A stretch of 61,680 nt of DNA, counting the filler, from Rhabdomonas costata (Eukaryota), in the NCBI GenBank assembly GCA_019059605.1. It is 16 parts of 16 records of this genome, joined end to end, with 100 filler letters (N's around TTAATTAATTAA, not from the genome) between each part and the next. Parts side by side here need not be neighbours in the genome. Positions count along the whole stretch, not along the records: positions 57,923 to 61,680 come from JAHMHO010000551.1; 15 more parts are not named here. One strand, written 5' to 3'. This document shows, piece by piece, positions 3,218-61,680 of the stretch (position 1 is its first letter; each line of letters starts with the position of its first letter). A program made the position numbers and the translations under genes. Under the pieces are notes generated by a model. The model was given only the letters and a program-made list of their open reading frames with translations. It had not been told where the DNA came from and searched no databases.

Positions 3218-3766
3218 GTGTGTCGACGGCTTTGCAGTCGCTGCGTTTCTTGCGTATCCCTCGGCGCCGTACCCATCCTGTTGCATACAAGCTTTGTTTT
3301 GCCTGATAAAAGGGAAGTCATCATTTCAGTCCTTCTCTTGTGCGAAGTCAGTTTGCACTTGGTTCCTCAATCGGGCAATCTGTTGCGCTTTTTCACGGCA
3401 AGGCAATAAGCGCTCTGTAGGATAGAAGCCTGCTATCATCAAATATTCCTGGGGCAAACCTCGCATCACCGCACAGCAGCTTCCGATTGGCGTAAGGAAC
3501 GAGCATAAAGAGACCGAAAGAATGCCACAACGCGCCTCACACTGACTTCTTTGGACTTCTGCAGCGCTGACCAGTGGGAGCCTCCCAGCACCCACCGAAG
3601 GGAGGGTGTAGGTGACCGTCTTGTGTCAGGGGCAAAGGGGATGACGCGGAAGGATTGACGCGCAAAGGGGATGACGCGGACGTGGATTTGGGTGCCTGCA
3701 CCACCTTTTTTTTTCCAGGCTCAGGAGAGAGGGAAATCGAGGCTGGCGTTCCGCTTCCACCCACCC

Positions 3767-3866
3767 NNNNNNNNNNNNNNNNNNNNNNNNNNNNNNNNNN
3801 NNNNNNNNNNTTAATTAATTAANNNNNNNNNNNNNNNNNNNNNNNNNNNNNNNNNNNNNNNNNNNN
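3767..3866. other. Artificial contig linker N44-TTAATTAATTAA-N44 (first of 15)
   Basis: Identical 100-nt spacers with stops in all frames also lie at 7633-7732, 11497-11596, 15359-15458, 19218-19317, 23076-23175, 26958-27057, 30823-30922, 34680-34779, 38539-38638, 42394-42493, 46246-46345, 50098-50197, 53966-54065 and 57823-57922. Confidence 0.99.
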
Positions 3867-6800: not shown

Positions 6801-7732
6801 GGTCATTGGTCATTTGGTGGATGCCCATTCTTGACGACGCAAGGGTTGTGACACGTTAATCATGCGGAAGGTTGCCTCTCACTGGAATCCGCGGGGCTGC
6901 GGACCACTGGGATTTACCAATTGCGGCCGCATTTCTGGCAAAGAACCCAGAAATAAGACTGGACTACAGCGATGCTGTACTGCGCTAAGCTTAGCAGAAC
7001 TAGCGGGGGCACCAAAATTCCGTGGAGATCTTCAACCTGGTTTGCGTGAGTGGTACTCTCCTAATTGCAGGAAGGCCTATCACGAGACCTATCCTGGCCA
7101 AGGGATTTTTGGAAACCATACCGCGCCATTTCACTAAGTTCGAACGGCACACGGGCGCCCCCGTAAAAAAATTTTGCACCTCCCTCCCCCGGGAGAAACC
7201 CCTTTGTGGTGTACTCCAGCCCACCACCTTCCAAGAGCAGTGCGTCTTCACTTCACAATCGGTCATATCTTTTCGATGTGCCTGGGCTCGGTGCTCAACG
7301 GGTGCGACACTTGGCCGGTTTGGCGGGACATCCACACGTGCCGTCAGGCGCCACCGCTGCGCCTGCAGTGCCCAGTGAGAGCCCCACCTCAATGTTCATC
7401 GCGAGGAGCTCCACGCAGAGGTAGATGAAGGAGAAGGGCAGGTGTACCGTCTGCGGGCGAAGCGGCGCAGGGACGCAGTGTGCACGAATGGGAAAGGAGA
7501 TCCAAGCAATGGTATGGATGAGCGGATGACAATGACGGCATCAGACGGAATCCCCAGGTCCAAAGAATGGGAATCCACAGCTGCACACCACAAACGTGAA
7601 AAGTCAGAAGCCACCTAAACGCCAACAAAACCNNNNNNNNNNNNNNNNNNNNNNNNNNNNNNNNNNNNNNNNNNNNTTAATTAATTAANNNNNNNNNNNN
7701 NNNNNNNNNNNNNNNNNNNNNNNNNNNNNNNN

Positions 7733-10700
7733 GCTGCCAACCGTCAGTTCCCTTTCACCACACTGTTCGTTACCACATCCCTGGCACCCGCCGACGAGTT
7801 AGTCGCGGCCCTCGGCAGCATTCCGACCAATGTACTTGTCTCCGAAGTGATTCCTCTCCAGAGCAGCTCAGTTCAGCCGAGCCAGCTTGCCAGTGATTTC
7901 CTCTCTGCGGCCACCGCAGCTGGCCCCCACACCACGTCGCCTGGGGCTGTTGTTGTTGAAGCTTATCTTGTTGGCCGGTTTTGCAGCGCAGTTGTTCGCC
8001 AAATGGCATCCAGCAGTGGTAGCACAGCGTTTGTCTCCACTCTGTTCACCAGCTCTCTGGTTTACGTCAGCGGGCTTTATCTGGGGCCGTACACTGCAGG
8101 AAATTGCAGCGCAGGGCTCTCTGAGATATGGGTTGCAAACGCCTCTGGGGTTTCCACACCCCTTGTTGTTCCCGTGGATCGTGTGACAGGGATCGCTTCT
8201 TCGTCTCTGAACAGCTTCGTTGTATTCGGGCAGTCCGTGGCTTTGTCCGGGGTTGCGGCGGACAGTGGGATGAAAATGCGGCTGGGAGTCTGGGCAGCCT
8301 TTGCCGCACAGAACGCCAACGGGGGAATTTTTGGCCGCAAGGTGGCCTTGGAAACCCTCGATGACGGCTACACTGCGGCTGGGGCGAAGTCCAACACGGC
8401 GAGCTTTGTTCAGGACAGCCGCATTCTGGCCCTGGTTGGGTTCTACGGTACTGGACCTGCCGTGGAGGCCAGCTCCATCGCCTCGGCCAGCACTATTGGC
8501 CTTGTGGGGCCTTACAGTGGCTCGGAGGCACTGCGGTTGCCCTTCCAGCCCAACACGGTCAATGTTCGGGCCTCATACTCTGACGAGATTACCGCCCTGG
8601 TGAAGTATCTCACCACCAATACTCAGGCCACGAGGGTTTCGATCTTCTACCAAAACGACAGGTGTGACTGTGGCTTTCACTGCGCTTTTCTTCTTCTGAT
8701 TCATTGGAGCCTATTTCGAGAAGGAAAACAAGCGAATAAAGCACGCTGTGACGGCATCCATAATTGTCCAAGAATCAAATGCTTAATTGTCATCGTCGTC
8801 GTCATCACTGTCGTCATCATCCTCATCTGACATCACCCTATGACATCATCGAATGACATCAAGATTCCCTGTATTGTCGTGCTCGTCAATTTGTTGCCAC
8901 ACTGTGGTTGTATGCTTCTTGTGTTTGTCGTGTGTTTGTGCAGCTTTGGGCTGGCAGGCCTGTACGCCCTGGTGAACACCCCAACCGCAGTTAACCTTAA
9001 GCTCTTCAGCAGTGCTGCGTACAGCCTGACTGGCGCCACGGACTTCGCCAGCTCAGTGCGGCGCCTGCTAGGGGGGTCCTCCGCGACGTGCCCCGAGGCG
9101 GTAGTTGTGCACGCGCTGGGACAGTACGCTGCCCCGCTGATTGCGCAGGCCCAGGCGGGCTTTCCCACCACTCCGGTGTTCCTGTTAACCTCTCCCGCGG
9201 CGGTCTCTGCGGAGATGCTGCGGCAATATGGCGGAAGCCCAGATGGGGTGCTGATCTCGCAGGTCTTTGCTTGAGCGAGGAAGAGGGCGGGAGTGGACTT
9301 CGAAAGCGGAAAAATTTTCGATTTCTATCTGTCGGCTCGTGGGGTCAGATCGGGAACGGCGTTTTGGATCCCCTTGTTACTCGTGCTTCCTGGTGAACAG
9401 CATCAACGCTGCTACGCGAATCTGGCAGTTTTTTCGTGAGTACATCTTACATCGATAAATCTATGCCTGGTTTACAGCTGAAACTTTCACATCTACCTGC
9501 CATGCTGCGCCTAAACTCTCTTTGGGTAGTCGTTGCCTCTCTTCCTCTTCTTTCAAGGTGGTTCCCTCTCCGGTGGACACCACCCTGCCGGTGATCCAGG
9601 ACTACCTCTCCGCACTTCGCTTGGTTAACTCTTCCGCATCTCCCGACTGGGTTTCCCTGGAGGGCTATCTCTCCGGCCGCCTTGCCCTGGCCGTGGCGCA
9701 GCGAATGAACCCCACCCAGCTGACCAGCCGCCAGGCCTTCGTGGACGCGGTGTACCAGAGCTCCTCGTTCCTCCTCAGTGGGCTCCCTTTGGGCCCATAC
9801 GCCAGCGTTAGCGCGGCCTCACCGTGCAACCAGGGCATGAGGTGGGTGTGGGTGACAAAGCTAAACAACAGCACCAGCACCAGCAGCTATTCTGTGGTGG
9901 ACATTTTCCAATTCTCCACCGCGGCATGCCAGAGCGACGCCACGTCGGTGTGATGGGGCGGGAGTTGAGAATTTTTTGTGGCCCACATATCACTTTTTTC
10001 TCAAGTTACTATTTGCTGGAATGATGAGATCTTCTGTCATTTTTGAGAGGTGAAACTGATGAGTAATCCGAGAAGCGAAGGTCGTCAACACATTCCAAAG
10101 TAAGGATGTACACAGCTTCTTCTGTCCTGAGGTCCCGAGGTTTTCTGCAAGCAACACAGAACGGAATTTCTTTTGGATATTTTTGTGTTTTTGTGTGTTG
10201 TGTCAGCTATGGCGTGATATCTGTGTGGGCTCCACAGCTTCCGAAGTTCCTGTTGCTCGGGCAGTCCACCGCACTGTCCGGCGGGATGACGGCCGGCGCG
10301 GAACTCCGCGCCGGCATTACCGCAGCGCTGACCGCCGCCAACGCCGATGGCGGAGTCTTTGGGCACAAGCTTATCCTGCGGGTGCTGGACGACGGCTACA
10401 TTCCTGCTAACACCACCCGGAATACTATCGCGCTTGCCCAGGGCGACGGGGCCTACGGGCTGATCGGGTACCTGGGCTCGGCTACTTCCCAGGCCGCCCT
10501 GGAGGTTGCGGTGAACTATTCGATCCCTCTGGTGGGGGCCTACGCCGGGAGTGATGGGCTGCGGATTCCCTTCCAGTACAACGCGATCAACATTCGCGCG
10601 GGGTACAGGTTCTCTTGCCTTGGACTCCTCAATTAATTCTTGATATCTTGCGCCCAACGGCGTGCCAGCGGCTTCTCGCAGAGAGACGAGAGGCGGGAGC

Positions 10701-11253: not shown

Positions 11254-11619
11254 GTATGCGCAGCTGGGGGAGGGGTTGCTCGCGGGTTGCGCTATGGAGG
11301 CGTGAAAATAAGGTAAGTTACATCCCGAAACTCAGAATTTAGTACGAGATCAATGGTTTGGTGAACTATGTGCTGAACTTCACCCCGTAAACGAGAATTT
11401 CTTACTTCTACCAGAATGACAGCTGTATGCGCAGCTGGGGGAGGGGTTGCTCGCGGGTTGCGCTATGGAGGCGTGAAAATAAGGTAAGTTACACCCNNNN
11501 NNNNNNNNNNNNNNNNNNNNNNNNNNNNNNNNNNNNNNNNTTAATTAATTAANNNNNNNNNNNNNNNNNNNNNNNNNNNNNNNNNNNNNNNNNNNNGTGT
11601 GGGTGTGTTTGGTGGGGGT

Positions 11620-14440: not shown

Positions 14441-15769
14441 CCGTTGACAACATCTCGCCAGTCTATTGGCGACACCTTTCTTGTAGATTTGTGCATAGTT
14501 CCTGTTTGTGTTGTCTCCCCAGGCAGAAGTGAATGCCTGGTGGAATTATAGCCCACCGCTGTGAGGCACCCCGTTTGTGCGGGCATGCCCCTTGACGTGA
14601 CCAGGTAGTTAAACAAACGGCACAGTGGATAGCCGACAACATAGATTTGCCCGACAGGCCACCACCAATATTCTGGGAACCTTGGTGAGATTCACCCCGG
14701 CCGCAGACTGAGCGGGGTCCCAGAGTACCGTAGGGGCGTGCCTCGAGTTTGACGAGGGGGTTAACAACCGACACCGACCTGGGTCCAAAATGGGGTGTCC
14801 TGGGTGAAAAAACTGAAACTGACCCAACTGTTTTGAGGTCAGTGGGTCCAGAACCCGTTTTATACCGATTTGCAGCTTTTTGGGTGGTTTGACCTCTTTT
14901 TTCGCTGTTGTTTCTTTTTCCGCCCTTTTCAAAGAAGGGCGTTTTGGATTCCGAAGAAGCCAGAGCGGTGCCGAAGTCCAATGTCCAATGGGCCAATGAG
15001 TTCCAGCTCGCCCAGTGAAAGGGGAATGCTGGCTTTTCCCTTGACCGTCTGCTAAGGGAGAGTCAAGGCATTGACATGAAGCATCCCTCATGCAGCATAG
15101 GTGGGGTTCGTTCCCCGTCTCGTCCGATGCACGTGGTTCGGGGTGAGTTGCGGTCCTCAGAAGGGGCATGGCGTTCGTTTTTGAGTTTGATCCTTTCAGT
15201 ACTTTTGCCTTTTATATTCAACCATTCGGAAAGGAATTGTTCGTTTCTTGGTGTGAATTGATGGCACCCGTGTCCTCTGAGTTGCTCCAAGAAACGAACA
15301 ATTCCTTTCCGAATGGTTGAATATAAAAGGCAAAAGTACTGAAAGGATCAAACCACAANNNNNNNNNNNNNNNNNNNNNNNNNNNNNNNNNNNNNNNNNN
15401 NNTTAATTAATTAANNNNNNNNNNNNNNNNNNNNNNNNNNNNNNNNNNNNNNNNNNNNTGTGGGGTGTGTTTGGTGGGGGTGGTTTTTCGAGATGAGCAG
15501 TTGGCTGATCTCATGCGTCACCCCGACAGAGTGGTTGGGTCAGGCATCCCCGCCTGTGCCTTTGGCGCTCTTCGCTGGGTCTTCTTTGCACCTGTGGGGT
15601 TGAGGTCGACTTACCTAGGACCCTTCCCATCTGAAATCGGAGGATGAGTTCTGCGGGCTATCAGATGGGATGACCAAGTGCGGGGTGACGGATGGGGTGA
15701 TGGGTAAATAGGGGCATTGTTCAGCGTTCTCCGTAGTCGGGTTTTGGTCGCCCCTGGCCACTTTGTGGT

Positions 15770-29064: not shown

Positions 29065-30308
29065 ATTCAGAAGCTCCATCGTAGCCTCGTCCCTGAACAC
29101 CACCACCCCAGGGGTGTACACAATGGCGTGGGTGTACAAGGTGGAAGCGGCCCCGCGGTTGAGGTCATAGTATGGTGCTGCCTCCGCAGCGGAGAGGCAG
29201 GGGTACAGGCTGCTGGCTCGGCACAGGGACTCCTCTTGGGTCTGGGCCCCGCTTAGGAACCCCCCGCCAGGGTTTTGGGCCGAGGCAAAGTTCAGGCAGA
29301 CCACGGAGGGCAACGGTAAGGGGAGCGTCAAGTCAGGGCGCGAGCAGGAAGAAGGGTGACATGTTGTGAGTATTGAAAGGTGGAACCGCCATGAGAACTA
29401 AGTGCGGCCCAAACTAAACCACAGCTGGCAACACTGCGATCAACGTCAGCGATGGTGGCGCTGGACACTCGTCGCAGTGTTGAGACACATCGAAGACGGG
29501 ACAACGCGTGGATGAAGCACCGAGTTGATGACCGTTTCCAAAACAACAAATTATGAGGGGGTGACAATCGAGGGCAAATTATAAGGCACTGACTACATTG
29601 GGGTGGGGGTGGGGATGCACATGTGTGTTCGATACGAATGCCCAACCTTTAGACCCCTGCTCACTGGGACAGGATACTTTCAATAGAATAGCTCGTGGTT
29701 TGGTGATCTTTCTCATAGTTAATCGATTAATTAATGTGCCGCAAGGTACCAAAATTTGTCATCCGGCGTCTACGGATTTCATTCATCACGTCAGAAGGGC
29801 CACCTACGAGCTTACTTGGGTTGCCATAAGACGCATAGCACGGCCTCACACGCGCTGTTACAGATGAGCGTTCCTGGCCGATTGCCGCAGCAAGGGGCTG
29901 TCGCCAGGTTGCTGCTGCCGCCCCCTCCTTTCTGCAAGGCTGTGACCGGACCCTCGGGGGAATGGGCTGAAGGGTCTCCACGCACCGGCGGGCCGCCTCC
30001 AGGGTTCGCTCCGGGGTCACCTCAATGCGAGTCTGCAGGGCGGGCTGTGGAGATGGAGGGCGGTGGAGCCTGCCCGGCTCCGTCTCAGGGGGGAGGTAGA
30101 CTCGGGTGTTCTGGCGGGCGTGCTCGCAGCGGTCCCGGATATCCACCACCGCGCCGGATTGGGAGGCGGGGTAGGAGCCCTGCCGCACGATGTTCAGGGT
30201 CTCCTGTGCCACCGCGGTGTTGGGTGTACGGGCAGCACCACCGGAGGTCGAGCCCCCCGTGGAGGGGCGGGGCTGCCGCTGTGGGGTCTTGACCTTGTCT
30301 TTTTTCAT
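29065..30308 (-). CDS. TIGR02452/DUF2263 microbial PARG-like macrodomain protein, N-terminal half only
   Basis: ATG at 30308. Motifs AQETLNIVRQGSY, TRIEVT..TLEAARR(LAE), LNFASAQNPGGGFLSGAQTQEESLCRASSLYPCL and IVYTPGVVVFRDE. Proposed exons 30308-29986, 29939-29892 and 29317-~29065. Confidence 0.9.
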
Positions 30309-33300
30309 TTTGAAGCCTGTGGAAACCGAAAGCAAAGTACCAAAATAATAAAGAGCTGAGAACGTATTATAAAAGTCACTGTTTTGACATCCAGTGTGTC
30401 TATGAACAGAAGATCCCTTTTTTTGCATGCCATTTTCGCAGGGGCCAGAACCCACACTGCTTTTTCTGCAATGTGCAAGCCGGCCCTTTTAAAAAATATT
30501 TCGTCGAATTTTTTTTTCGTAATTTTTTGCAACTGCTCCACAATGGCCAGCCCTGCAATGTGTTCCAGACGTTAGGGTGAGTACAACTGAGGATTTTTGA
30601 CCTCACTTTTGACGTTGGACACGTGCTGTATGCCGCAAAAAAAGTAGGGGAAGGTTCGGGGTAGAAAAATGGCCTGAACTGGAAAAACAGCCACTTGAAC
30701 GACACGGAGTGGTCGCATTAGCATTGATACCCACTGTATGCTATCCGTCACGGTGCCCCTGCGACCACTCCGTGTCGTTCAAGTGGCTGTTTTTCCAGTT
30801 CAGGCCATTTTTCTACCCCCAANNNNNNNNNNNNNNNNNNNNNNNNNNNNNNNNNNNNNNNNNNNNTTAATTAATTAANNNNNNNNNNNNNNNNNNNNNN
30901 NNNNNNNNNNNNNNNNNNNNNNGCCTGCTACATCCACTGTAGAAGGCTACCTCTAGTAACAATATTGTCTGACCCTTTCACCAAAGTTTGTGCCGCCTCT
31001 ACCTTCTATCGTCTCTTCACCGCGTGGACATCGGATATCAAAAATGTGTCCTTGCTGCGTTAATCTTCGACTGCGGTGTGGCATTACACTACTCTCTGGA
31101 ACTGTTGCTTCCAGAGTCGATCATGAAGATATCACTGAAAACAGATTTGGAACTCCTGGCAATGCAACCAAAGCGGTAGATTCACCGAAAGAAAACTTGG
31201 TACCACATCTTTTCCTTTATTACACGGAGTGAGAAACTCAGTACTGAAAAAGTAGTATAGCCATAACGCATCGCATACAATTCTATGCCTAACGATACTA
31301 CTTCCCAAAGTAGGTTTAGGCCTTTCTAATGCCTGATCCAATGTCTGCAGCCATTTCTCCATCAGTTCGTTCTGTATGTTCCCATACAATCACAGCTTAC
31401 AAGCAGATACTGCAATTGCTCGTCGTTTTCAAACCGATTCATTGACAAAAGATTTTGACACTTCATGAGCTGCTTGTAGGAACTCTAAAATTACATTTTA
31501 CAATTTTCTATAGTCTCCATACAATGTTGTCGTCACAAGTCTACGGATGAAAGTTTTCCCAGCGCACTAGCAAAGTCTACCTAATCTCTGAGCGTCTGAT
31601 TTTGGGTATTTATTACAATTGCAAATGAGCCCAAATCTTCCGTAGCATACACAGTTGCAACTTGGACTGTAACTCTCCAAAAAATTTCCTTTATTCAACT
31701 GCAACAACAACGAAAGAATTTAGCTGCATTAACATCGCATATTTGGAATCCCGGATATTTTCCGTGATTCTCCTGCAATCCACCCCCTCACAAGGATTCA
31801 TGCTATCCCCTTCACCCCACACGTAGATGATGAGATCATACTGAATACTAGCCAGAGTATAACCACATTTTCCTTGCAGCTTCCAAAAAGCTCCTTCCAC
31901 TGCATTTTACTGGATGGAGCAACTGTGACAGGCACTGCCTCTGTCTCTGCAACTCATCCACGGCAGCCCACCTCTAAATCTTAATCTCTGCACAATATTG
32001 TCCTCCAATTATTGCTTCGACTTCTGCTGCGCTTCCAGCTGCCGAAACTGCGAAGATACATGCAACAAAAAAGTCGCTTGATGTGTTTGTGCGCACTTTC
32101 TACAGACATCTTAAATCATCTCAGCCACAACCATACTACGCAAGCTTTTTTCTGCGCTGCTCAAGTTACAAAATCAACTGGAACATGAACACCACACTCA
32201 ACCCAACACAGAGCACGTGGTTTTGCTTTCAACTAAGCAACCGAGTGGCACAGCAAATCTATTTTTCAACCCCTCTGACTTTGTCTTGATTGTCTCAATT
32301 ATGTCCCTCTTTGGAAACATTCCAGCTCTGTGCAAACTCGCTCTGCTTCAGATCTACTCTTGTACGACCGCTTTACTCTTGCAAGACTTCTGACTCTGGC
32401 TTTTGACACTCGGCAATTTCGTACCGAGCTCATCTTTTTTTTTACTTTCATCATTATGAACTTTGCTTTTGACACTTTGATGATGCGTGATGATCTTCTG
32501 GTGCTTTGTCCATTGCAATCTCCTTATCTATTGTTCTTTTCTCTCTACCTTTCCCGGGATTTTGCTCCACTTGGCTCTCCAGGTCGGAAATATCTCCCTT
32601 ACTACTCACCGTGTGTAACTTCACTTCCTGACGTCTTTTGCCTCTTACTCCAATGGTTGTGGCCTTCCCATGGTACCAAAACTCCCTCTCCAAGCTGCGA
32701 AACTGCGAGACTGGAGTTGACTGCCTATGGTAGACTTTCTGTGACTTCACACGCACTCTGTAACGTTTCCTCTTTCGACTCATCAACGAGACTCTTACAC
32801 AACCTCGTCATGCAACTTGGCTCCGCAGCTTATCAAACCAAACCGGATGATCTCAGTCTCTCGCTCCATCTTGCTACCTCCCTCCATCTCCATCCCTCCC
32901 TCCCTCTCCATTTTTCGCTCTCTCTTTCGTCATCGCCAAATCAAACTACAGTTGAGCTCTAAGTAGCATTAATGCAAGGCAAACGTTGTTCTGCACAAAG
33001 ACCAACCTCAGGTAAAGCACGCTAGACGCTCAGTCTTCACAAACGTAATCTCTTTTAGAACCATTTAGCTTTCACGAACAACTTATCTTGCAAACTTAAT
33101 ACCTGCGCTATTTTGCCTCTGACACGTTGCCAGTGGTTTTCTGCTGCGTGTTGCGGATTGGGTGGCGTTTTTGTCTCGGAATTTATCAGCTTCTATGGAT
33201 TATTTAGCTCCTGACCAAATTTCTCGTCCTTCACCTCAAGCAGGTGTTTGTGTGCGCCTCTTGCCGTCGCCAATATTTCAAAGGAACTACGTTGTAACGG

Positions 33301-34679: not shown

Positions 34680-34796
34680 NNNNNNNNNNNNNNNNNNNNN
34701 NNNNNNNNNNNNNNNNNNNNNNNTTAATTAATTAANNNNNNNNNNNNNNNNNNNNNNNNNNNNNNNNNNNNNNNNNNNNGGGGTGGGGGTGGAAGT

Positions 34797-38538: not shown

Positions 38539-38638
38539 NNNNNNNNNNNNNNNNNNNNNNNNNNNNNNNNNNNNNNNNNNNNTTAATTAATTAANNNNNN
38601 NNNNNNNNNNNNNNNNNNNNNNNNNNNNNNNNNNNNNN

Positions 38639-39970
38639 TCCCGGTGCCCATTTTGGCAGGCGACAAAAAGTGGAGTGGCGTTAAATTTGTTTCCCAGGTT
38701 GACATCGGCCTTGTGCTGCAGAAGCAGATCCGCAGTACCCCGGTGCCCATTTTGGCAGGCGACAAAAAGAGGACTGGCACCGCTGCTATTCTGCTGGTTG
38801 ACGTCGGCCTCGTGTTGCAACAGCAGCTCCGCCGCGTCCCGGTGCCCATTTTGGGAAGCGACAAAAAGTGGACTAGTACCATCGTTCTTACACTGGTTGA
38901 TGTCGGCCTTGTGGTGCAGCAGCAGCTCCGCAGTATCCCGGTGGCCTTTTTCAGAGGCTGTGTAAAGCGGAGTAGTGTTATTGTTCATCCCCAGGTTGAC
39001 TTCAGCCTTGTGCTGCAGAAGCAGCTCCGCAGTATCTCGGTGCCCATTCTCGGAGGCGGCGAAAAGTGAGGTAACACCGTTGCGGAATCTCTGGTGGAGG
39101 TCGGCCTTGTGCTGCAGCAGAAGCTCCGCAGTATCCCGGTGCCCATTTTGGCAGGCGACGAAAAGTGAAGTAGCGCCAATGCTCATCTCCTGGTTGATGT
39201 CGGCCTTGTGCTGCAGCAGAAGCTCCGCAGTACTCGGGTGCCCACTTCCGGAAGCGGCGAAAAGTGGACTAGCACCATCGTTCTTCTTCCGATTGACGTC
39301 GGCCTTGTGTTGTAAGAGAAGCTCAGCAGTATTCCGGTGCCCATTCTGGGAGGCGACAAAAAGAGAAGTAGCACCATCGTTCTTACACTGGTTGATGTCG
39401 GCCTTGTGCTGCAGCAGAAGCTCCGCAGTATCCCGGTGGTTATGCTGGCAGGCAACAAAAAGTGGAGCAGCATTATTGTTGTTTCCGAGGTTGACGTTGG
39501 CCTTTTGCTGCAGTAGCAGCTCCGCAGTATCCCGGTGCCCATTTTGGCAGGCGACGAAAAGCGGAGCAGCGCCATTCATGTTCCGCTGGTTCACGTCGGC
39601 CTTGTGCTGCAAAAGAAGCTCCACGGTATCCCGGTGGCCATTTTGGGAGGCCGTGGAGAGTGGAGTAGCGCCATCGTTGAGCCCCTGGTTGACGTCGGCC
39701 TTGTGTTGCAGCAGCAGCTTAGCAGTATCGAGGTGGCGGTTTTCACACGCAAGGAAAAGAGGAGAGGCGCCATCGTTTTGCTTCTGGTTTATTCCCGCAC
39801 TGCGCCGAAGAAGCTCTGCTGCACTCGAAGTATGGCCGCATTGGGCTGCGACGCAAAGCGGAGTCTTACCTGTGGAATCCACGCTGTTCACCTCTGCTCC
39901 ATGGCTGCACAGGGCTGTCACGCACCCTACATACCCAAATCCCGCTGCAGTGTGAAGCAAGCTGTGCTCT
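38639..39970 (-). repeat. 99-bp tandem ankyrin-coding repeat array
   Basis: Units such as gtcggccttgtgctgcagcagaagctccgcagtatcccggtgcccattttgg recur every 99 nt. Confidence 0.95.
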
Positions 39971-42126
39971 CCTACGCGAAACTCCGCGCTGTTCAAGCTA
40001 GCATCCGTGTCAAAGGCCTCCAGAAGCTGAATCAGCATCCCCTCGTGGCCCGTCCGCACCGCCTTTTGCACCGCTTCCGCCTTGGATGCCTCCCTGCACC
40101 CCACACCCGCAGCCAAGTGCACGATGGCAGTACCGTTGCTCTGGAAGGGATCATTTAGCAGCTCGTAATAGCCCTCAACGCTGGTGCATGGCTCTATAAA
40201 CTTTGGGTTGCGGGGCAGCTCTTCCGCCGCCCTCGCTCCGGGCAGCTCGCGATAGAAAACCACCTTGACCTCCTCCATGGAGATGATGTCCACGTCGATA
40301 AGGTCGCACCCCATGTCCTCCTCCAGCAACGTCTTGATCCCCACGCTCGCCTTCCCGGAAACCCGGAACTGACTCCCGCAAGGCATCAGCACCTCCTCCT
40401 CGGCCGGAAACACGGAGAAGGGCGCAATGAGCCGCCCCGTACGACTGACCAGGGTGAAGATCGTGCCCGAGGGGGGCCCCACAACGCCACCCTTGCCCAG
40501 GAACGCCCGCACCACCTTCGCGGACTTCGAGGTGCTGCTTGGCTGAGGCACAAGACAGATTGCAAAATTGGGATGGTCAGGCTGGGATGAATTGGGGTGA
40601 GAGCCGCTGCGAGGTTACGGGTGGGGAGTGCTGTTACCATTGATATTGCCGTCAATGGAACAGAGGGGTAAGCAGGCAAGAATAAGGCGACAGATGAGCT
40701 GGGTAATTTCACGTTTAGCCATATCGGAAGAACGTTCCATCACAAGTCCACGAATACATACCTCCTTCTACCCTAAGTTTGAGTTTCTGCAATTGTTACC
40801 GACCGAACGAGATCCGCTTTCAGGCACTCACACATCTCCCCCGAGAGGGTTTTTCCCGTTTCCGGGGCTCCGCGGGAAGTCTGGAGCGGGCTCGAAGGGA
40901 TGGGAGACGCGTGCGGTCTCATCTGCTTTTGGGTGCGCGGAGGGGCAACCGCGGGAGTGTGCCAGACGTCCCCTTCCGCGAGATGGGTTGGTTGAGCCAT
41001 TTTGTAAGGGTGCTCAAAGGTGAAATCTTCTTTACCCGAAGCTCTCTCAACCCAGTTCCCATCGTAGAAGCTTTTCTCCCTGCCCTAGAAGATGTCACGG
41101 GCGATTGTTTCATATGCCAATATCTCTTTTGGTGCCTGTCTTGGACAGAACTCTGGGCAATGCAGAGCATATGCTACGGATGTCCGTTCAGCGAATGCAT
41201 GGGCACCTATTCCCGAACCTTCAGCAGGGTTTCTCAATGATTATGAAGTGTTACAGCTGTGAAAACCACCCCTATCATCCAAAACGTTAGGGTACTCACA
41301 AGGTTAATGAAACGAAGAGTTACCTCTTTGAAGCAGCAGAGCTATCCAGCTGAGGACCTGCTTCATTTCCGACGACATCTCCTCCCAAATCATAATGAGA
41401 ACATGTCAAGAGGATCGAGTGTTTTTTTTAAGGCTGTGCCCCAATAGAACCTTTTTCGACTGCTAAAGAAAGGCCATCCTCCACCATCCTCTTGTTATGC
41501 GCACGAATGGGTTGTTCTCCTTGAAACATCGCCAACACTGGTGCAGCGATGCTAAGGGTCATCCAAGGGTAGAATCCATGCTCTTCAGCCCTCAAAAAGC
41601 CAGAGCGAATGGAAAAACGCCTTATCGGCACTTTGGTAGCCTCCCAGAGGCCCGTAACATAATGAGATTTGGTTTTTTGTAACCACTCCCAATGGAAGTT
41701 GGGGGGGGGGTTGTTACGGTTACCACCGGTGACAAAAATATGCCAGCAACCTCCAAAAACACTTTATTGTTGTGCAGGGGGTTTGGGAAAACTTTGTTAG
41801 CAGCTGAAAAGTGCACCTCGTTTTAGGGATTACGAGGTAGGGGGCTGAAAAGGGAACAGTGCGTCACTAACACCACAGAACCATTTCATTAACAGTGAGG
41901 CCCACAGCACTCCCAATCTCACCTGATTCCAAGTCACCACAGAGCCCACCCGAAAGGAGCTCGACGGGAGCTTGAAGTCCACCGCGCGGTATACCATCCC
42001 CCGGTACTTCGGTAGGCTTTGCAGCTCCTCGTGCAGCAGCTTCGCGAAGGGCTTCCACGGCTCAAACGCTGCCGACCCGCCCTCCGTCCCGTACTCTCGG
42101 CTGCTCAGGTTCAGCAGCGGAAACAA
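38639..42126 (-). CDS. R-S-E type mono-ADP-ribosyltransferase fused to at least 14 ankyrin repeats; partial
   Basis: Exon 42126-41923 (LFPLLN...LQSLPKYRGMVYRAV...GSVVTWNQ) splices in phase 0 to 40542 (PSSTS...GTIF...FSVFPAEEEVL....FRV), giving catalytic R, STS and ExE. This is followed by 33-aa repeats xxPLFVACQNGHRDTAELLLQHKADVN. Confidence 0.9.
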
Positions 42127-43020
42127 CTGCACGCAGCAGCAGTACCAACCAACGGAAAGGGTACTCGCATGACCACCCACCCACATACCAACTGCGTGGA
42201 TATGGCTGCGGTGACTTGCGCTTCTCTTCCTTCTTGGGCTCCCCATCCTTGATCGACGCAATTTATATGTTGGGAGGTGTTATACGTTTAACACTGCTAA
42301 ACTGTCCTAAACTTCCTGAGCCCCTTAATTTAAATTATGGGGCTCAGGAAGTTTAGGACAGTTTAGCAGTGTTAAACGTATAACACCCCCACCNNNNNNN
42401 NNNNNNNNNNNNNNNNNNNNNNNNNNNNNNNNNNNNNTTAATTAATTAANNNNNNNNNNNNNNNNNNNNNNNNNNNNNNNNNNNNNNNNNNNNGGGTGGG
42501 GTGACCTGGAAAAAGAGCTAGAGGTTTGCTGACCACTGACTTGACAGGTTGGGATGCGTGGCTGGGTTGAAGTCGAGGTTCAGAGTTGGTCTGATGTGTG
42601 TTAAGAGACTTCTTGGTTCTTCTGTGCAGGCATTGATTGAAACCAGTCTGTTCCTCTGCCGTAGGGAGCATTGCCGAACTTTCTGCTTTTGTGCTGGTGC
42701 TGATCATCTGCTCTTTTGGACCCTGCGGCTGTCACGGAAATCTGCAGAGGCGAAAGTTCTTTGTAAATAGGGAATTATTCACTCCTCATTTCTGATCATT
42801 TCTGAGTCGAAGTCAAGGTGGCTTGAAATGGAAAGCTGGATGCCTGGGCACTTAAGCTACCTTGCAGGGAGCATGTGTTGAATATTTAGGTGGTGGGTCG
42901 CAATATTTCGCCATACCAATCAACAGAAGCGATTGACTGGGTTTGTTGTCTGTTTTCGACGAAGTTCGATTATTCATTTTTCCCTTTTTGTACTTTTACG
43001 ACCCATATAAGGACAAACAT

Positions 43021-56800: not shown

Positions 56801-58210
56801 TACATCTTACAATTCCAGCTTTCAAACATTCCATTAATTCTGCTTTTCCATCTTCTTTTTTGCCCAATCATTTTCAGAGGTATATTTACGCTGCATAAGC
56901 TCATATTTAAGCTGCGGTAGCACTGTTTACTCAACTTTGCAATTTTATTGTACTGTGAACCCGTCCTCCAGTAGTTGCTCTTCAAACATACTCCGTGTAT
57001 CATTCCTCGTGTTGCTGTATTATCACTGATTTAGGATTGGTGTTCAGAAGAATATCTTCAATTACAATAAAAGACATATCAAAAAGTCTATGAAAAAATT
57101 ACCCATCAATTCAAAAAAACAATGGAAAATTCAAAAATTTTTAATGTGGCCACAGGCTCTATGATTCATTACATCGCTCGCCCATTTATTTTTATTTCAA
57201 GCCTGATGAAAACCGTCACGACTGAAACTCGCGGGTGGAACTATGATGTTGACAATGCAAGTCAGGTGCAACATCCATTTGGCATTACTCCATGGAACAT
57301 CGTCCATATCAAACTGCTTTGTCAATGCTTCCCAATTTTTAACTGAAAACACAACACATTTAATTGCCAACTGAATTAATCAGCTTTTTGCGATCATATA
57401 CGGACAGGCGCGTGGTACTTTGATTGCTCCGCTTCGAAAACGTTTGTGGGCGCGCGCGGCCCAACCACCATGTCGCATGATGTTTCTTATCATTCGTGGC
57501 ATATTAAATTCTGCGGCAATCGGAAGTATGAGGTAATAAAACTTTCGGAACTATTTTCTAGAAGGGATGTTTTCCATCTTTGCGCGCATCCGGGATTTTA
57601 CATGAACAAAAAGAATTGAACGCCAACGTACCACGCGTGGTATAGATCTTGCGGTGCCTTGTTATTCCGCCCTATCCAATAAGGTTATGGCCGCCAAGTG
57701 CACATCAGAAGCCGGTCTAGTAGTCACAGCAGAAGACGGTCTAGTCGGAAAAAGGCTATAATCAAAATGAACGGGCTCCAAAGGTTCTTTCCTGATCACA
57801 CTTTTTTGGGGTAGGCAAGTTANNNNNNNNNNNNNNNNNNNNNNNNNNNNNNNNNNNNNNNNNNNNTTAATTAATTAANNNNNNNNNNNNNNNNNNNNNN
57901 NNNNNNNNNNNNNNNNNNNNNNTTTTGAAAAGGGTGATTTTTAAGCAGCACGTGGAGAATAAATTGACTTAGCGGCACTAGTTCGTGAGTTTTTCCAGAA
58001 AGGGGTGACTTTCGAATGCATATGGGCGATTTATATCGAAGTTCATACCCGCACCAGAAGTGCTTTTCTCTCAAAACTGCTACAAAAGGCTGGGGTCAAC
58101 AAAACAACCAGTAATTTGCACCGAGGGAACGAAAGAACACAGGGAAACGTGTGCGCTGCAAAACAATATATAGCAACGCAACCGTTCACGCAGCAGGTCA
58201 TCACAAAGCA

Positions 58211-59272
58211 TCAATAAGAGCAGCGGGCTCCACGGTTTTTCACTATTTGATGGATCCTTTTGGGCATTGTCATGATCGTTTTGTCGATATATTGGGCCGC
58301 CAACTCGTGAATGGTGGAAATGATGCGTTTCTCAAATTCTTCAAGGGTCTCATAGCGAATTTCCAGTGCAATGGCGTCATCAGCGAGCTTTTTCTTCACA
58401 AGGTGAAACAGATTTTCCACCGGATTGAGATCAGGGCTTCGCGGGGGGATAAAGAACTGCTCAGCCCCAATTGCCGCCATTGCCCTCAACGCTGCCCTAC
58501 TGGTCTGGGAGGGATCATTGTCCTGCAGGAAAACTTTGCGAGGCTTTTTGCTGAGCAAAAACGCTTGTGGAAGAGTGCTCCTGACAAACGTGGAATAGAA
58601 CTTGGCGCTCATTTTTTCGTACTTCGAGCATACAACGACCCCAGCACCAAAAGACACCCCCACAAGGAAGCGAAGAGTTCGGCCCCCAGAGCCTTCATGG
58701 GAGCCTTTGCGGGTGATGAGCAACTTCTCCTCCTTCTTGAGCCAGGCTCGAGCATGAGGAGAAGAGTGCGCATCCATGGGGTGAAGTTTGTGCTGAAATG
58801 CCACACCATCAATATAGAACGCCACCCCACTAGCCCAGAAAGAGGCAGGCGTTTTCAGGTGCCGCTTGCACCATGCAAGCCTTCGCTTTCTGTCAGCCTG
58901 CGTAAGAACTCCCTTACGGTGAACCGAAGACCAGGAATAACCTGCCCTGGTCATCTCCCTGTAGCATGTCGCCAGTGAGCATGTATTGCTAAATCCAGCA
59001 GCATGCTGCAGCTGTCGGACAGAAAAGCTTTTTGACTTGGGGCGCAGTAGCGGTACATGACGCAGCAGTTGCCGGCGGCATCTGGCGTCCAAAGCTCGTG
59101 GACGCCCACCGGGATGTTTCTTTTCAGGGCCCCTTAGAAGTGGCCGTTCCGCAACACGCTTGACTGATCCCAGTGAAATACCACATTTTCGAGCAATAAC
59201 GCGGTAGGAATAGCCATCCATAACCATAAGCCTCACCAAAGCCCTGGCTTCGATGCCTATTCTTGGTGCCAT
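58211..59272 (-). CDS. IS630/Tc1/mariner superfamily transposase (DD34E), intact and intronless
   Basis: ATG at 59272 (MAPRIG). N-terminal HTH (GYSYRVIARKCGISLGSVKRV), GRPR linker, RRLAWC, and catalytic FYID / FLQDND / SPDLNPVE with 34 residues between the second D and E. Ends MPKRI..IVK.RG.R..Y. Confidence 0.93.
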   Translation of the reverse strand: MAPRIGIEARALVRLMVMDGYSYRVIARKCGISLGSVKRVAERPLLRGPEKKHPGGRPRALDARCRRQLLRHVPLLRPKSKSFSVRQLQHAAGFSNTCSLATCYREMTRAGYSWSSVHRKGVLTQADRKRRLAWCKRHLKTPASFWASGVAFYIDGVAFQHKLHPMDAHSSPHARAWLKKEEKLLITRKGSHEGSGGRTLRFLVGVSFGAGVVVCSKYEKMSAKFYSTFVRSTLPQAFLLSKKPRKVFLQDNDPSQTSRAALRAMAAIGAEQFFIPPRSPDLNPVENLFHLVKKKLADDAIALEIRYETLEEFEKRIISTIHELAAQYIDKTIMTMPKRIHQIVKNRGARCSY

Positions 59273-59682
59273 TGCAAGAAACGTGAATAAAAGCAAGTAG
59301 TACGCGGCTAAAGGTCATAAATGCACATAACATTGCAGAGCAAACACTAAAGATATGACGGGCTTCTGTGTAACGCGCATTTGCAAACGTTCATTTCGAA
59401 GGCATGTTCCTCATGAACTGTGTAGCATCGTAATTCAACAAGATCCGCTTCATATTTGCTTCTTAATTCGAACGGCACGCTTATATAAAACACTGAGACA
59501 GCCATGCTCTTTTCGCCTTAACCTGATTGGACAGATCTTGAGATCTCTGCGGTATCGGCATCAGTGTCTGGACATATCATGACACTCATCCGAGGGAAAA
59601 ATGGAGCAAACACAACGTGCACAATATAGCAAGGCACATCCAGAAGTACCATCACAAAGGGGGAGGGGGCTGGATACACTGG

Positions 59683-61662
59683 TCAAGCGTGTTTCTTGCC
59701 GGTTGCACGGCAGTACGGGGAGGAAGAGAGAGGTAACCCACAGTCTCCGCAGTAAGCCAGCTGTGAGCTGGAGGTAGAGGAGGAGCGAGGAAACTCCGAT
59801 TCGGAGCTGGACCCACATTGATAATTGCAGCTATTGGAACCTTCTGCATCGGGAGATGGTTCCACACACATCTCAGAACCATGTGGAGTACAGGAGGAAT
59901 TTAATAGAAGCAAAGAGGCAAAGCATGCGGCACATGGAGGAATCTTCCTCTCCTGATTGGCAGACACTGTTTTCTCAAAGTGAAAAAACAGGAACCGCCG
60001 ATCCATCATCCCCTGCTCCTTAGGGTCAAGGTGACTCAATGGCGCTGCAGAGGTGATAAACACAGGCTGACAGACCTTAAAGTCCAGGTCACCCTGAAAC
60101 TCCGTCCGTGGTCGGCGGATGGTCACCTCTGTCCCTTCAAATACCAACAGAAGACTTGCCCAAGGAAGAACGTCTTCATCCAATCGGAAGTCCTGCCATA
60201 AGATCACTTCCTTTACTGGAAGCTCTTGCAGGGGAAAACCCGATTTTCGCGGCGGAGTCAAATGGCAAGTATAAATCACACGCAATGGGTCCAGAATCCA
60301 CGACTTTGCTGAAGTCGTGGTGCCATGGATGAAGACGTTCACCCCCTTAGAGGCCCCAGTCACCAGGGCAGTCACCACAGCCTTTGCGAATATAAGTGGC
60401 TGAATTTTTTGTAACCGTAACAAATCCAGTGCCATGGTTTTCCAGTCCCCGGCGTGGTCGCATGTGCAGGTGGCATCCGCCGCTTGCCGTAGGATTGCCA
60501 GACGGCTCAGCTCACTTCGTTTCAATCGAGCATCGGCTTGCTGCACATGACGAGCCTTCTCCACTATGCTGCTTGGGGACCTTTGCATGCAGAGAGAGAT
60601 GAGCCTAGGGTCACCCAACCTCTGCACAAATGACATTAAAGAGTCCCCAGTTTTCAGCTCGTGATCGCATATCAGCCGGAAAGCATACGCCCAGACAGGC
60701 TCCCTCCTGCTTTTTTGTGGACATTGAGATTTCAGTCCTCCTTTTTCGTCCTCATCAGCAGCGGCGGACGAAGAACCTTCTCCCTGGTCACCAAACGGAA
60801 ATTTTTGCTTACTGCCACTCCAAAAAGGACGTTTGGCAGCCTCCTCTGGAGAAGGGTGCGCTTCGGCACCATCCACAAGCAAAAACTCTTTGTCAAGGTC
60901 AGAGAGAGGCTTGTGCTTAGTTGGCCACCAACCATAGCGGAAAGCTGACCAAAAACCCCCTCCAGACACAGCGAAGTGCACATAAATACTGTGCTCGCGC
61001 CTGAGATAATCCGCTATAGGTGCCCACAGGTGCTGCCGACTGCTTTTCATCGCTGCATGAAAGTGGGTATTTCGTGCTTCATCAGTTACCCCTGCTGCAT
61101 GCATCTCTCTGAAAACAGCACCATATAGCACGCGCAAATTTGGAATAGCGGCTTCAAATGCTTTCAGTAGCAAATCTGCAAACTCCCTTCGGGAAAACTC
61201 GGATGGGGACCGCCGCTCCTCACTCTTTGGGTGAGAGAACGTGACGAGATAGACCCGCCTGCCGTTACGAGCTTTTCGGGAAAACGGTTGTGCACTATCA
61301 CTGTCGTGATGGACAGTTTCTTCGTCGGCCTCAAATACTCCGGGATCTGGTGGCGATATGTCCTGCATGCTTTTAGTGTACGTATCGTACACATCGGAAA
61401 TTACTTTGAATAAGTGGATGAGCCGGTCACTGTGAAGGTTGCTTGACAGAGAGGGTTGCTTGTCCGGATGCAAGAACAAGCAGAGATGCTTGTAGAATCG
61501 TCTCAGTGACTCATCCGACAAATCACCGGGGCATGGCATCCCCACCATGGAGCCAAACAGTGTCAACCATTGCACCCAGATCGATTTTCTATCAGCCATT
61601 AACGCGACAAAGCCGTAAAAAGAGTAGCGCACTACCACTTTGCATAAATCAAATCTGCTCAT
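59683..61662 (-). CDS. Rep-like protein: DnaJ-like domain + HUH endonuclease + SF3 helicase + C-terminal C3H zinc finger; intact and intronless (659 aa)
   Basis: J domain LRRFYKHLCLFLHPDK...FKVISDVY (HPD at aa 65-67). HUH motifs YLVTFS, THFHA (aa 200-202) and AFRY (Y243). SF3 Walker A GTTTSAKS (447-454), Walker B VILWQD, motif C VFITS and arginine finger DRRF, then CAAC. Ends C638xxC641...C651...H658. Confidence 0.88.
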   Translation of the reverse strand: MSRFDLCKVVVRYSFYGFVALMADRKSIWVQWLTLFGSMVGMPCPGDLSDESLRRFYKHLCLFLHPDKQPSLSSNLHSDRLIHLFKVISDVYDTYTKSMQDISPPDPGVFEADEETVHHDSDSAQPFSRKARNGRRVYLVTFSHPKSEERRSPSEFSRREFADLLLKAFEAAIPNLRVLYGAVFREMHAAGVTDEARNTHFHAAMKSSRQHLWAPIADYLRREHSIYVHFAVSGGGFWSAFRYGWWPTKHKPLSDLDKEFLLVDGAEAHPSPEEAAKRPFWSGSKQKFPFGDQGEGSSSAAADEDEKGGLKSQCPQKSRREPVWAYAFRLICDHELKTGDSLMSFVQRLGDPRLISLCMQRSPSSIVEKARHVQQADARLKRSELSRLAILRQAADATCTCDHAGDWKTMALDLLRLQKIQPLIFAKAVVTALVTGASKGVNVFIHGTTTSAKSWILDPLRVIYTCHLTPPRKSGFPLQELPVKEVILWQDFRLDEDVLPWASLLLVFEGTEVTIRRPRTEFQGDLDFKVCQPVFITSAAPLSHLDPKEQGMMDRRFLFFHFEKTVSANQERKIPPCAACFASLLLLNSSCTPHGSEMCVEPSPDAEGSNSCNYQCGSSSESEFPRSSSTSSSQLAYCGDCGLPLSSSPYCRATGKKHA

Positions 61663-61680
61663 GGATAAACACGCGGCGGA

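Follow-up and report, generated by a model that had tools for sequence, protein, structure and literature searches.

What kind of protein is encoded by the long reverse-strand frame at one end of the window analysed in this study, and does its resemblance to the large T antigen of polyomaviruses reflect common ancestry? The window is the whole stretch of 61,680 nucleotides (nt) from Rhabdomonas costata (GCA_019059605.1). It consists of 16 contigs of about 3.75-3.78 kb each, joined by 100-nt spacers of the form N44 + TTAATTAATTAA + N44 (3767-3866, 7633-7732, and onward to 57823-57922). Features on separate contigs are not physical neighbours, and the real context of the gene, referred to here as Rep, is limited to 57923-61680. 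At a probability of roughly 65%, we read this locus as an intact, selectively maintained gene for a rolling-circle-type initiator that combines a J domain, a single-tyrosine (Y1) HUH nuclease, an SF3 helicase and a zinc ribbon. On the same reading, Rep in this branch of its family is passed on jointly with a Tc1-like DD34E transposase gene, and the two most likely form one integrating mobile element; the J domain comes from a cellular DnaJ protein, and the likeness to large T is convergent.

Domains and predicted catalytic residues of the Rep protein

The last contig of the window contains an intact open reading frame (ORF) at 59683..61662 (-), which encodes 659 amino acids (aa) and leaves 18 nt between its first ATG and the contig end. 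Translation bore out the initial annotation of this frame and of the positions of its J, HUH and SF3 parts. The features of the gene are as follows.

57923..61680, no strand: contig with the Rep and transposase genes, 3,758 nt; everything left of 57823 belongs to other contigs
61600..61662, reverse: upstream in-frame extension, aa 1-21, probably untranslated
59683..61599, reverse: Rep gene of 638 aa, beginning at the conserved M22 and including the stop; it comprises J, HUH, SF3 and zinc-ribbon parts
61363..61599, reverse: J domain, aa 22-100, from Pfam, profile and conservation; HPD at 61462-61470
60853..61260, reverse: HUH (Y1-type) Rep nuclease domain, aa 135-270, from model, fold match and motifs
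61234-61254, reverse: HUH motif I, VYLVTFS, strand of aa 136-142
61105-61107, reverse: E186
61057-61065, reverse: HFH (H200-F-H202)
60952-60954, reverse: F237, codon TTT
60934-60936, reverse: Y243 of motif III, in the helix of aa 237-245
60703..60852, reverse: low-complexity Ser/acidic/basic linker, aa 271-320, predicted local distance difference test score (pLDDT) below 50, mean identity 40%
59893..60702, reverse: SF3 helicase, aa 321-590, N-terminal helical part and ATPase core
60301-60324, reverse: Walker A, GTTTSAKS
60190-60204, reverse: Walker B, ILWQD
60046-60066, reverse: motif C, FITSA
59995-59997, reverse: Arg finger, R556
60460-60468 and 59923-59934, reverse: conserved Cys pairs C399, C401 and C577, C580
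59686..59757, reverse: C-terminal CxxC...C...H zinc-ribbon-like tail, aa 636-659

A protein homology search returned 17 close homologues with 50-71% identity, every frame open, on contigs of 1.9-8.6 kb. In the alignment of these proteins (A1), the Met aligned with M22 (61599) is the first residue of 10 of the 17, and only 1 of the 17 covers aa 1-21; the true start is therefore most likely M22 and not the first ATG, which gives a product of 638 aa. It had been a worry that the J region might be untranslated because the start lay further downstream, but this region falls within the frame conserved from M22. The proposed domains are more conserved than the linkers: mean identity to the homologues is 71% in the SF3 core, 65% in the HUH domain, 64% in the zinc-ribbon tail, 56% in the N-terminal helical part of SF3 and 50% in the J domain, and it falls to 33-40% in the linkers. 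The model of the whole protein has a mean pLDDT of 59.7.

The nuclease domain was modelled separately. With A2, an alignment of 100 listed family representatives, AlphaFold2 gave a model of aa 120-285 with a pLDDT of 91.6 and a predicted template modelling score (pTM) of 0.84, in which the elements follow the order beta-alpha-beta-beta-alpha-beta-alpha. When this model was compared with 48,161 chains by VIA-align, ranks 1-11 were all Rep nuclease or origin-binding domains (Z 9.5-6.7), as follows.

Ranks 1-2: Vientovirus Rep, Z 9.5 and 9.3 (9pqf: root-mean-square deviation 2.8 over 107 residues)
Rank 3: faba bean necrotic yellows virus (FBNYV) M-Rep, Z 8.1
Rank 4: Geminivirus Rep, Z 8.0
Ranks 5-6: plasmid RepB, Z 7.7 and 7.4
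Ranks 7-8 and 11: Circovirus Reps, Z 7.2, 7.1 and 6.7
Rank 9: simian virus 40 (SV40) large-T origin-binding domain, Z 7.1
Rank 10: Smacovirus Rep, Z 7.0
Rank 12: first unrelated row, an RRM, Z 6.6

Since Z values of 7-8 are common in VIA-align even for models without a clear match, the weight of this result lies on the eleven related rows together with the motifs. In BFVD, 23 matches were found at E <= 1e-3, and all 10 of the named matches among the 50 rows listed are replication proteins. The A2 profile, searched against the PDB, matched the Vientovirus Rep nuclease (E = 0.0073) and SIRV1 ORF119 (0.028), and relatives match Pfam REP_ORF2-G2P and Gemini_AL1 below the cut-off; this support from sequence is consistent, though weak.

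The motifs agree with the fold. Column counts, taken over 166 proteins (P0001-P0166), give T141 in 113 of 118, E186 in 120 of 129, H188 in 112 of 130, H200 in 130 of 133, H202 in 127 of 132, Y243 in 130 of 131 and K251 in 88 of 101. Many relatives have [VI]-x-K directly after Y243, the usual motif III of CRESS and geminivirus Reps; the branch of the window protein has Y-GWWPT-K, with K251. These data support a Rep-type HUH nuclease fold with single-Tyr motifs, in which Y243 is the presumed catalytic tyrosine and E186 the likely third metal ligand. Motifs I-III (VYLVTFS, H200-F-H202 and Y243), which the initial annotation had called intact, are present and conserved, and the HUH fold that it had proposed for aa 135-260 is the one that the model and the eleven leading chains indicate.

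The SF3 assignment was likewise upheld. The A2 profile matched Rep40 of adeno-associated virus (AAV) at 1.7e-8, B19 NS1 at 4.4e-7 and papillomavirus E1 at 1.1e-5 in the PDB, and CRESS Rep helicases merely at E = 0.48-0.83; no match to large T was found at E <= 10. In a Foldseek search with the whole-protein model, the E1 helicase (2.4e-7) and AAV Rep68 (5.8e-7) were followed by SV40 large T (4gdf; 2.5e-5 over 543 columns) and B19 NS1 (4.4e-5). These comparisons place the helicase nearest to AAV Rep and papillomavirus E1. The Walker A pattern G-x4-G-K-[ST] is present, its G447 and K453 being found in 152 of 152 proteins. D491 is kept in 141 of 152 and replaced by E in 10, and the preceding residue is N or Q in 127 of 152. 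R556, which aligns with the Arg finger of AAV Rep, is kept in 148 of 148. Two Cys pairs flank the ATPase core (C399 in 143 of 152, C401 in 111 of 152, C577 in 146 of 147, C580 in 147 of 147), and their conservation suggests a putative metal site. In the tail, C638 and C641 are found in 27 of 27 sequences and C651 and H658 in 25 of 25; the relatives P0024 and P0033 match Pfam zinc-ribbon models at this position.

The evidence for the J domain comes from the family rather than from the single sequence. A Pfam DnaJ match at E <= 1 is found in 14 of the 18 members of A1 (best 8.4e-5), and the distant relative P0024 lies above the Pfam cut-off (29.6 versus 27.8 bits). The A1 profile gave 48 matches at E <= 10 among all PDB sequences, all of them on the J region except 1j6r, the best at 3.2e-4. 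When A1 was widened with more distant J-bearing relatives to 25 sequences (A3), the profile found solved J domains with a best E of 9.7e-6, and 14 sequences reached E <= 1e-3. The J region accounts for 57 of the 60 rows shown, with alignments that run through helix II, HPD and helix III; the remaining 3 are two ABC transporters and E1, on the P-loop. Each residue of the HPD motif (H65-P66-D67) is kept in 24 of the 25 sequences spanning the column. The whole-protein model, the only model of this region, places helices at aa 15-40, 50-64 and 75-97 around HPD, with pLDDT 72-86. An N-terminal J domain with profile-level homology to solved J domains is thus supported, as the initial annotation had suggested from an HPD-containing helical hairpin. 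Given the conservation of HPD, this domain may well recruit Hsp70.

Distribution of the J domain and the likeness to large T

Searching representatives with A1 revealed a large family: 1,890 clusters at E <= 1e-3, of which 863 reach 1e-10 and 267 reach 1e-30. Its members occur on short contigs in public assemblies of genomes and metagenomes. Among the best 150 of the 1,890 clusters, most matches span profile positions of about 100-570, which cover the nuclease and helicase but not the J region. Prokaryote genomes yielded no relatives, and neither did the viral contig collection when searched with alignment A1 or protein P0058. One cluster comes from the nuclear assembly of the dinoflagellate Polarella glacialis; its 10 members carry SAM domains, and 6 of them list a 144,849-nt contig. 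Additions at the C terminus vary in the family: SAM in P0022, P0023, P0031, P0053 and P0063, SHOCT in P0071 and P0122, and zinc ribbon in P0024 and P0033. No description of a J-HUH-SF3 protein or of this Rep family was found by full-text literature searches, although supplementary files, which lay outside those searches, could hold one; the family is apparently undescribed.

The survey of homologues for the J domain, which the initial annotation had called for, was made on the best-matching proteins P0001-P0166. A family tree was built from the 128 of these 166 with residues in at least 75% of the 466 nuclease-plus-helicase columns; 38 fragments were left out. The J region is present in 17 of the 128 near-full-length representatives. 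The clade of the window protein has 17 rows and 100% local support; 14 of these rows bear the J region, and P0015-P0017 are N-terminally truncated fragments. The other J-bearing proteins, P0020, P0024 and P0031, lie nearby, where the tree is poorly resolved. Long N-terminal extensions are present in ten J-less relatives, none of which showed a DnaJ match at E <= 0.05. When the J label was placed on the 128-row FastTree, it required 5 changes, 3 of them forced by well-supported branches; on a 51-row maximum-likelihood tree from IQ-TREE, with the 17 J rows and 34 rows selected from neighbouring clades, it required 2 changes, 1 of them forced. A single gain of the J domain within the family is possible.

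This distribution bears on the origin of the large-T layout. Rep and large T share the order of an HPD-containing J domain, an HUH-fold DNA-binding domain and an SF3 helicase; the SV40 origin-binding domain stands at rank 9 for the nuclease model, and 4gdf matches the whole-protein model over 543 columns. These likenesses might mean that Rep is a surviving ancestral large T, with a J-domain origin shared by both and predating the inactivation of the nuclease. We consider this highly improbable. The J domain is confined to the minority of representatives counted above, and its matches among the rows shown for A3 are cellular J proteins, namely DNAJA, DNAJB, DNAJC, auxilin, Sec63 and bacterial DnaJ; large T is not represented in the 60 PDB rows shown at E <= 1. 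With the helicase profile, AAV Rep, NS1 and E1 were matched at E <= 10 and large T was not. Unlike large T, Rep has conserved HUH and Tyr residues and lacks an LxCxE motif, the absence of which had already been reported. Because the J domain resembles cellular DnaJ instead of large T and was probably gained inside the Rep family, the likeness is most likely convergent. Of the earlier wording "convergent or ancestral-like", the first half agrees with these results and the second half fits them less well.

The linked transposase and the nature of the locus

Rep shares its contig with one further gene of relevance.

58211..59272, reverse: Tc1-like DD34E transposase gene, 353 aa, ATG at 59272; the ORF from a TTG reaches 59296
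59297..59682, no strand: spacer from the Rep stop to the transposase ORF, hairpin-free

The product matches Pfam DDE_3 (E = 1.7e-10, 41.4 bits versus a cut-off of 28.6) and, below the Pfam cut-off, a Tc3-type helix-turn-helix (HTH). Its triad D163, D259 and E294 is intact, with a spacing of 34 between the last two residues. Linkage was compared in the window and in five metagenome loci with Rep homologues (L001-L005); by tblastn, the transposase lies downstream of Rep and on the same strand in all 6 loci. A search for transposase relatives gave 84 at E <= 1e-5, and many of these belong to multi-copy clusters on long contigs. In a tree of 79 rows, from which 11 proteins shorter than 270 aa were left out, the six Rep-linked transposases fall within one 13-row clade (SH-aLRT 98) that also includes P0195, P0245, P0191-P0194 and P0247. 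P0195 is identical to the L002 transposase, and its longest contig, of 5,429 nt, equals in length that of the Rep homologue P0004; the longest contig of P0245, of 5,838 nt, likewise equals that of the Rep homologue P0014. These coincidences hint at two further candidate linked pairs, P0195/P0004 and P0245/P0014. An intron-like gap of about 175-200 nt occurs at the same point of the transposase gene (aa 272/280) in three loci (L003:3726-3929, L004:4001-4195 and L005:3412-3586), and the copy in the window is without it.

Repeats and hairpins were also found in the related loci. In 4 of the 6 loci, Rep and the transposase gene are separated by a spacer with a stable DNA hairpin (z from -3.0 to -5.1), which is absent from the window contig and from L002.

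L003:2576-2692, intergenic hairpin
L004:3062-3139, intergenic hairpin
L005:2455-2536, intergenic hairpin
L001:5130-5199, intergenic hairpin

Across L003-L005 the hairpin keeps its inner stem, GTCAATGTTG/CAACATTGA, and its outer C-rich/G-rich stems co-change, with 5 of 24 pairs altered on both sides among the three sequences. Upstream of Rep, L001 starts with a palindrome (L001:1-511) whose 137-nt arms are 97% complementary and full of CATGAAGGC repeats, and L004 starts with GGTATTCAGT-like direct repeats (L004:1-80); both sets of repeats are iteron-like, each from a single locus. In these few loci, the hairpin may mark an origin, a junction or the end of an element, and the upstream repeats could be origins or element ends.

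The palindrome and the hairpins would also suit an exogenous small DNA virus or episome of CRESS-like or parvovirus-like type, of which the contigs would be pieces and whose genome Rep would replicate. The nuclease fold, nearest to CRESS-virus Reps, and the helicase, nearest to parvovirus Rep, are what such a virus might encode, and the close homologues are all on short contigs. Nevertheless, this explanation is quite unlikely. Neither A1 nor P0058 found a relative in the viral contig collection; a related cluster is in a dinoflagellate nuclear assembly; no contig shows a terminal overlap; the DD34E transposase is always attached, with intron-like gaps in its gene; and the 5 further ORFs of at least 100 aa in the loci have no Pfam match and include no recognisable capsid gene.

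A different possibility is that Rep is a domesticated host gene, exapted as a replication or repair factor, and that a Tc1-like element merely prefers to insert alongside it. A large and constrained family, SAM additions of a typically cellular kind, the one contig size listed by several members of the Polarella cluster, the lack of co-variation between the two genes described below and the failure to find element ends would all fit such a gene. Set against these is the constancy of the transposase, whose order and orientation are the same in 6 of 6 diverged loci and whose attached copies form one clade apart from 63 other Tc1-like proteins. The catalytic residues of the nuclease, the ATPase and the transposase are all retained, and the copies, although they come from few samples, diverge by 54-67%, as would be expected of a mobile family with many copies. 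Domestication is therefore unlikely.

Several observations nevertheless weigh against an intact J-HUH-SF3 initiator that travels with its transposase. As to linkage, pairwise identities of Rep and transposase do not co-vary over the 15 locus pairs (Spearman -0.31, p = 0.26), and L001 groups with the window in Rep and with L003 and L004 in the transposase; the partners have reassorted, or have become associated more than once. Searches on either side of the transposase and of the gene pair in 4 loci (window, L003, L004 and L005) gave neither terminal inverted repeats nor target duplications, all scores being within those of shuffles, and the contigs may break off within the element. Blastn detected no blocks of conserved non-coding sequence between loci. 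The association is best described as stable with reassortment, and a single element is likely.

As to the protein, the window copy has F237 at a position where 125 of 132 relatives have Tyr and only 2 of 132 have Phe. This residue lies six positions before the Tyr of motif III, in the same helix; if a Tyr at 237 is catalytic or essential, the window copy would be impaired. Foldseek ranked HPPK first for the nuclease model in the PDB (E = 9.8e-4, TM 0.38), and no Rep is among the PDB rows listed. An HPPK identity was rejected: the match is taken as that of a generic alpha/beta sandwich because the exhaustive aligner, VIA-align, placed Rep domains first. Motif C is without its usual Asn and Walker B has a single acid, as the initial annotation had noted in describing Walker A (AKS), Walker B (WQD) and motif C (ITS) as variant. 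Position 539, which aligns with the N of the AAV Rep motif TSN, varies (K 30, A 15, G 15 and R 15 of 152), and motif C (F-x-T-S) has a conserved Asn nowhere in the family, so that this variant is a trait of the family and not decay of the window copy. A452, common to 37 of 152, and the single-acid Walker B are family traits as well.

Finally, the window protein on its own matches Pfam DnaJ (PF00226) with E = 0.036 over aa 47-93, its 14.6 bits being below the cut-off of 27.8. In the ESM Atlas, a DnaJ cluster is second-ranked for aa 22-112, with a score of 0.89 that is under the threshold of 0.9, and counts as a lead only. Both results would fit an N terminus that is just a helical hairpin with a chance HPD, serving oligomerisation or DNA binding and not Hsp70 recruitment. 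This is very unlikely in view of the alignment of helix II, HPD and helix III with many independent J-domain structures, the near-invariant HPD and the passage of P0024 over the Pfam threshold.

The other contigs of the window contain ORFs that are not neighbours of Rep.

38639-40551, reverse: ankyrin-repeat ORF with a weak ADP-ribosyltransferase match
29727-30455, reverse: microbial-type PARG-like ORF
7847-8830, forward: periplasmic-binding-protein-like ORF

The first of these, the second long ORF (38587-40551), was set aside as an unrelated ankyrin-repeat protein on another contig. A eukaryotic or mixed source would account for these three ORFs. Many window contigs have G/T-rich starts (GTGTGGGTGTGTTTG, TGTGGGGTGTGTTTG), for example at 11597-11611, 15459-15473 and 34780-34794, and right ends that are C/A-rich, for example at 3752-3766 and 42379-42393. 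These ends look like what is left of a G/T-only whole-genome-amplification primer and not like telomeres. A dinoflagellate spliced-leader motif has 0 matches within the window, and neither Rfam matches nor tRNAs were found in it.

Comparison with known systems and biological meaning

Initiators that need Hsp70 and a J protein recur in biology, as in polyomavirus large T, papillomavirus E1, phage lambda and plasmid P1. From what is established for HUH Reps, for SF3 helicases, for J domains and for DD34E transposases, we infer that the HUH domain would bind and nick an origin, with a metal on H200, H202 and probably E186, and that Y243 would make the covalent 5' link. The SF3 part may assemble into a ring and unwind DNA, through K453, D491 and R556. 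The HPD-containing J domain, probably acquired from a cellular DnaJ-type protein inside the Rep family, would stimulate host Hsp70 locally for assembly, remodelling or release of the Rep complex, and the transposase would insert and excise the element. The identities of the domains, the conservation of residues and the linkage of the two genes are shown by the data; all activities, the use of Hsp70 and the unity of the element are inferred.

Similar to parvovirus Rep/NS1 (AAV Rep68/78 and B19 NS1), Rep has a one-Tyr HUH domain fused to SF3 with an N-terminal helical part; these proteins are also the best sequence-profile match of its helicase, with the Arg finger aligned to R556. The nuclease of Rep, however, is compact and nearer to that of CRESS Reps, and bocavirus NS1 reaches just Z 5.6. 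The J domain and zinc-ribbon tail, the Asn-free motif C, the transposase neighbour and the lack of a recognisable capsid gene are further differences. With the CRESS Reps of Redondoviridae, Nanoviridae, Geminiviridae and Circoviridae, Rep shares the nuclease fold (Z 9.5-7.0), the T of motif I, the HUH of motif II and, in relatives, the Y-x-x-K of motif III. It differs from them in a helicase of parvovirus/papillomavirus type and in being about twice as long, with a long linker, the J domain and the zinc tail; nor was it found on a small circular genome. By analogy, Rep would act as a parvovirus or CRESS Rep does, with the J protein built in, and would have the part order of large T without being a large T.

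Ordinary Tc1 elements have a transposase alone between inverted repeats. The neighbour of Rep resembles Tc1/mariner DD34E transposases in its HTH and DDE_3 matches and in its triad and spacing; the locus differs from such elements in the 1.9-kb Rep gene that is always upstream and in the inverted repeats, which were not found in the 4 loci. Among eukaryotic HUH transposons, Replitrons are of the Y1 type, with a CRESS-like Rep and no helicase, and Helitrons have a two-Tyr Rep with an SF1B Pif1-type helicase, according to PMC10288648. Like Rep, the HUH genes of both reside in nuclear genomes of eukaryotes and have multiplied there; unlike Rep, neither is linked in that text to a J domain or to a partner transposase of the DDE type, the words "DnaJ" and "mariner" occurring 0 times in it. 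The replication proteins of papovaviruses are described in PMC13595969 as having an inactivated HUH domain that serves origin recognition.

Beyond the initial annotation, this study adds a large, protist-linked family, a lineage-specific J domain within it, a constant Tc1-like partner, the F237 substitution, the downstream start at M22 and the concatenated nature of the window. As a tentative proposal, to which we give clearly less than even odds, the gene pair may be an unrecognised eukaryotic mobile element that integrates by Tc1-like cut-and-paste, multiplies its excised DNA by a rolling-circle Rep and carries its own Hsp70 co-chaperone domain. Such an element would be a living example of the integrated pool that could have supplied the replication proteins of parvo-, papilloma- and polyomaviruses, and an independent version of the large-T layout with an active nuclease.

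In sum, the J-HUH-SF3 Rep would make a chaperone role in a nicking initiator directly testable. It belongs to a family with swappable end domains (J, SAM, zinc ribbon and SHOCT), whose nuclease and helicase halves resemble those of different virus phyla, and the composition of this family is relevant to the question of how small DNA viruses came by their replication modules. The stable pairing of Rep and a Tc1-like transposase points to a possible new mobile element of protist genomes, a hybrid of replicon and transposon.

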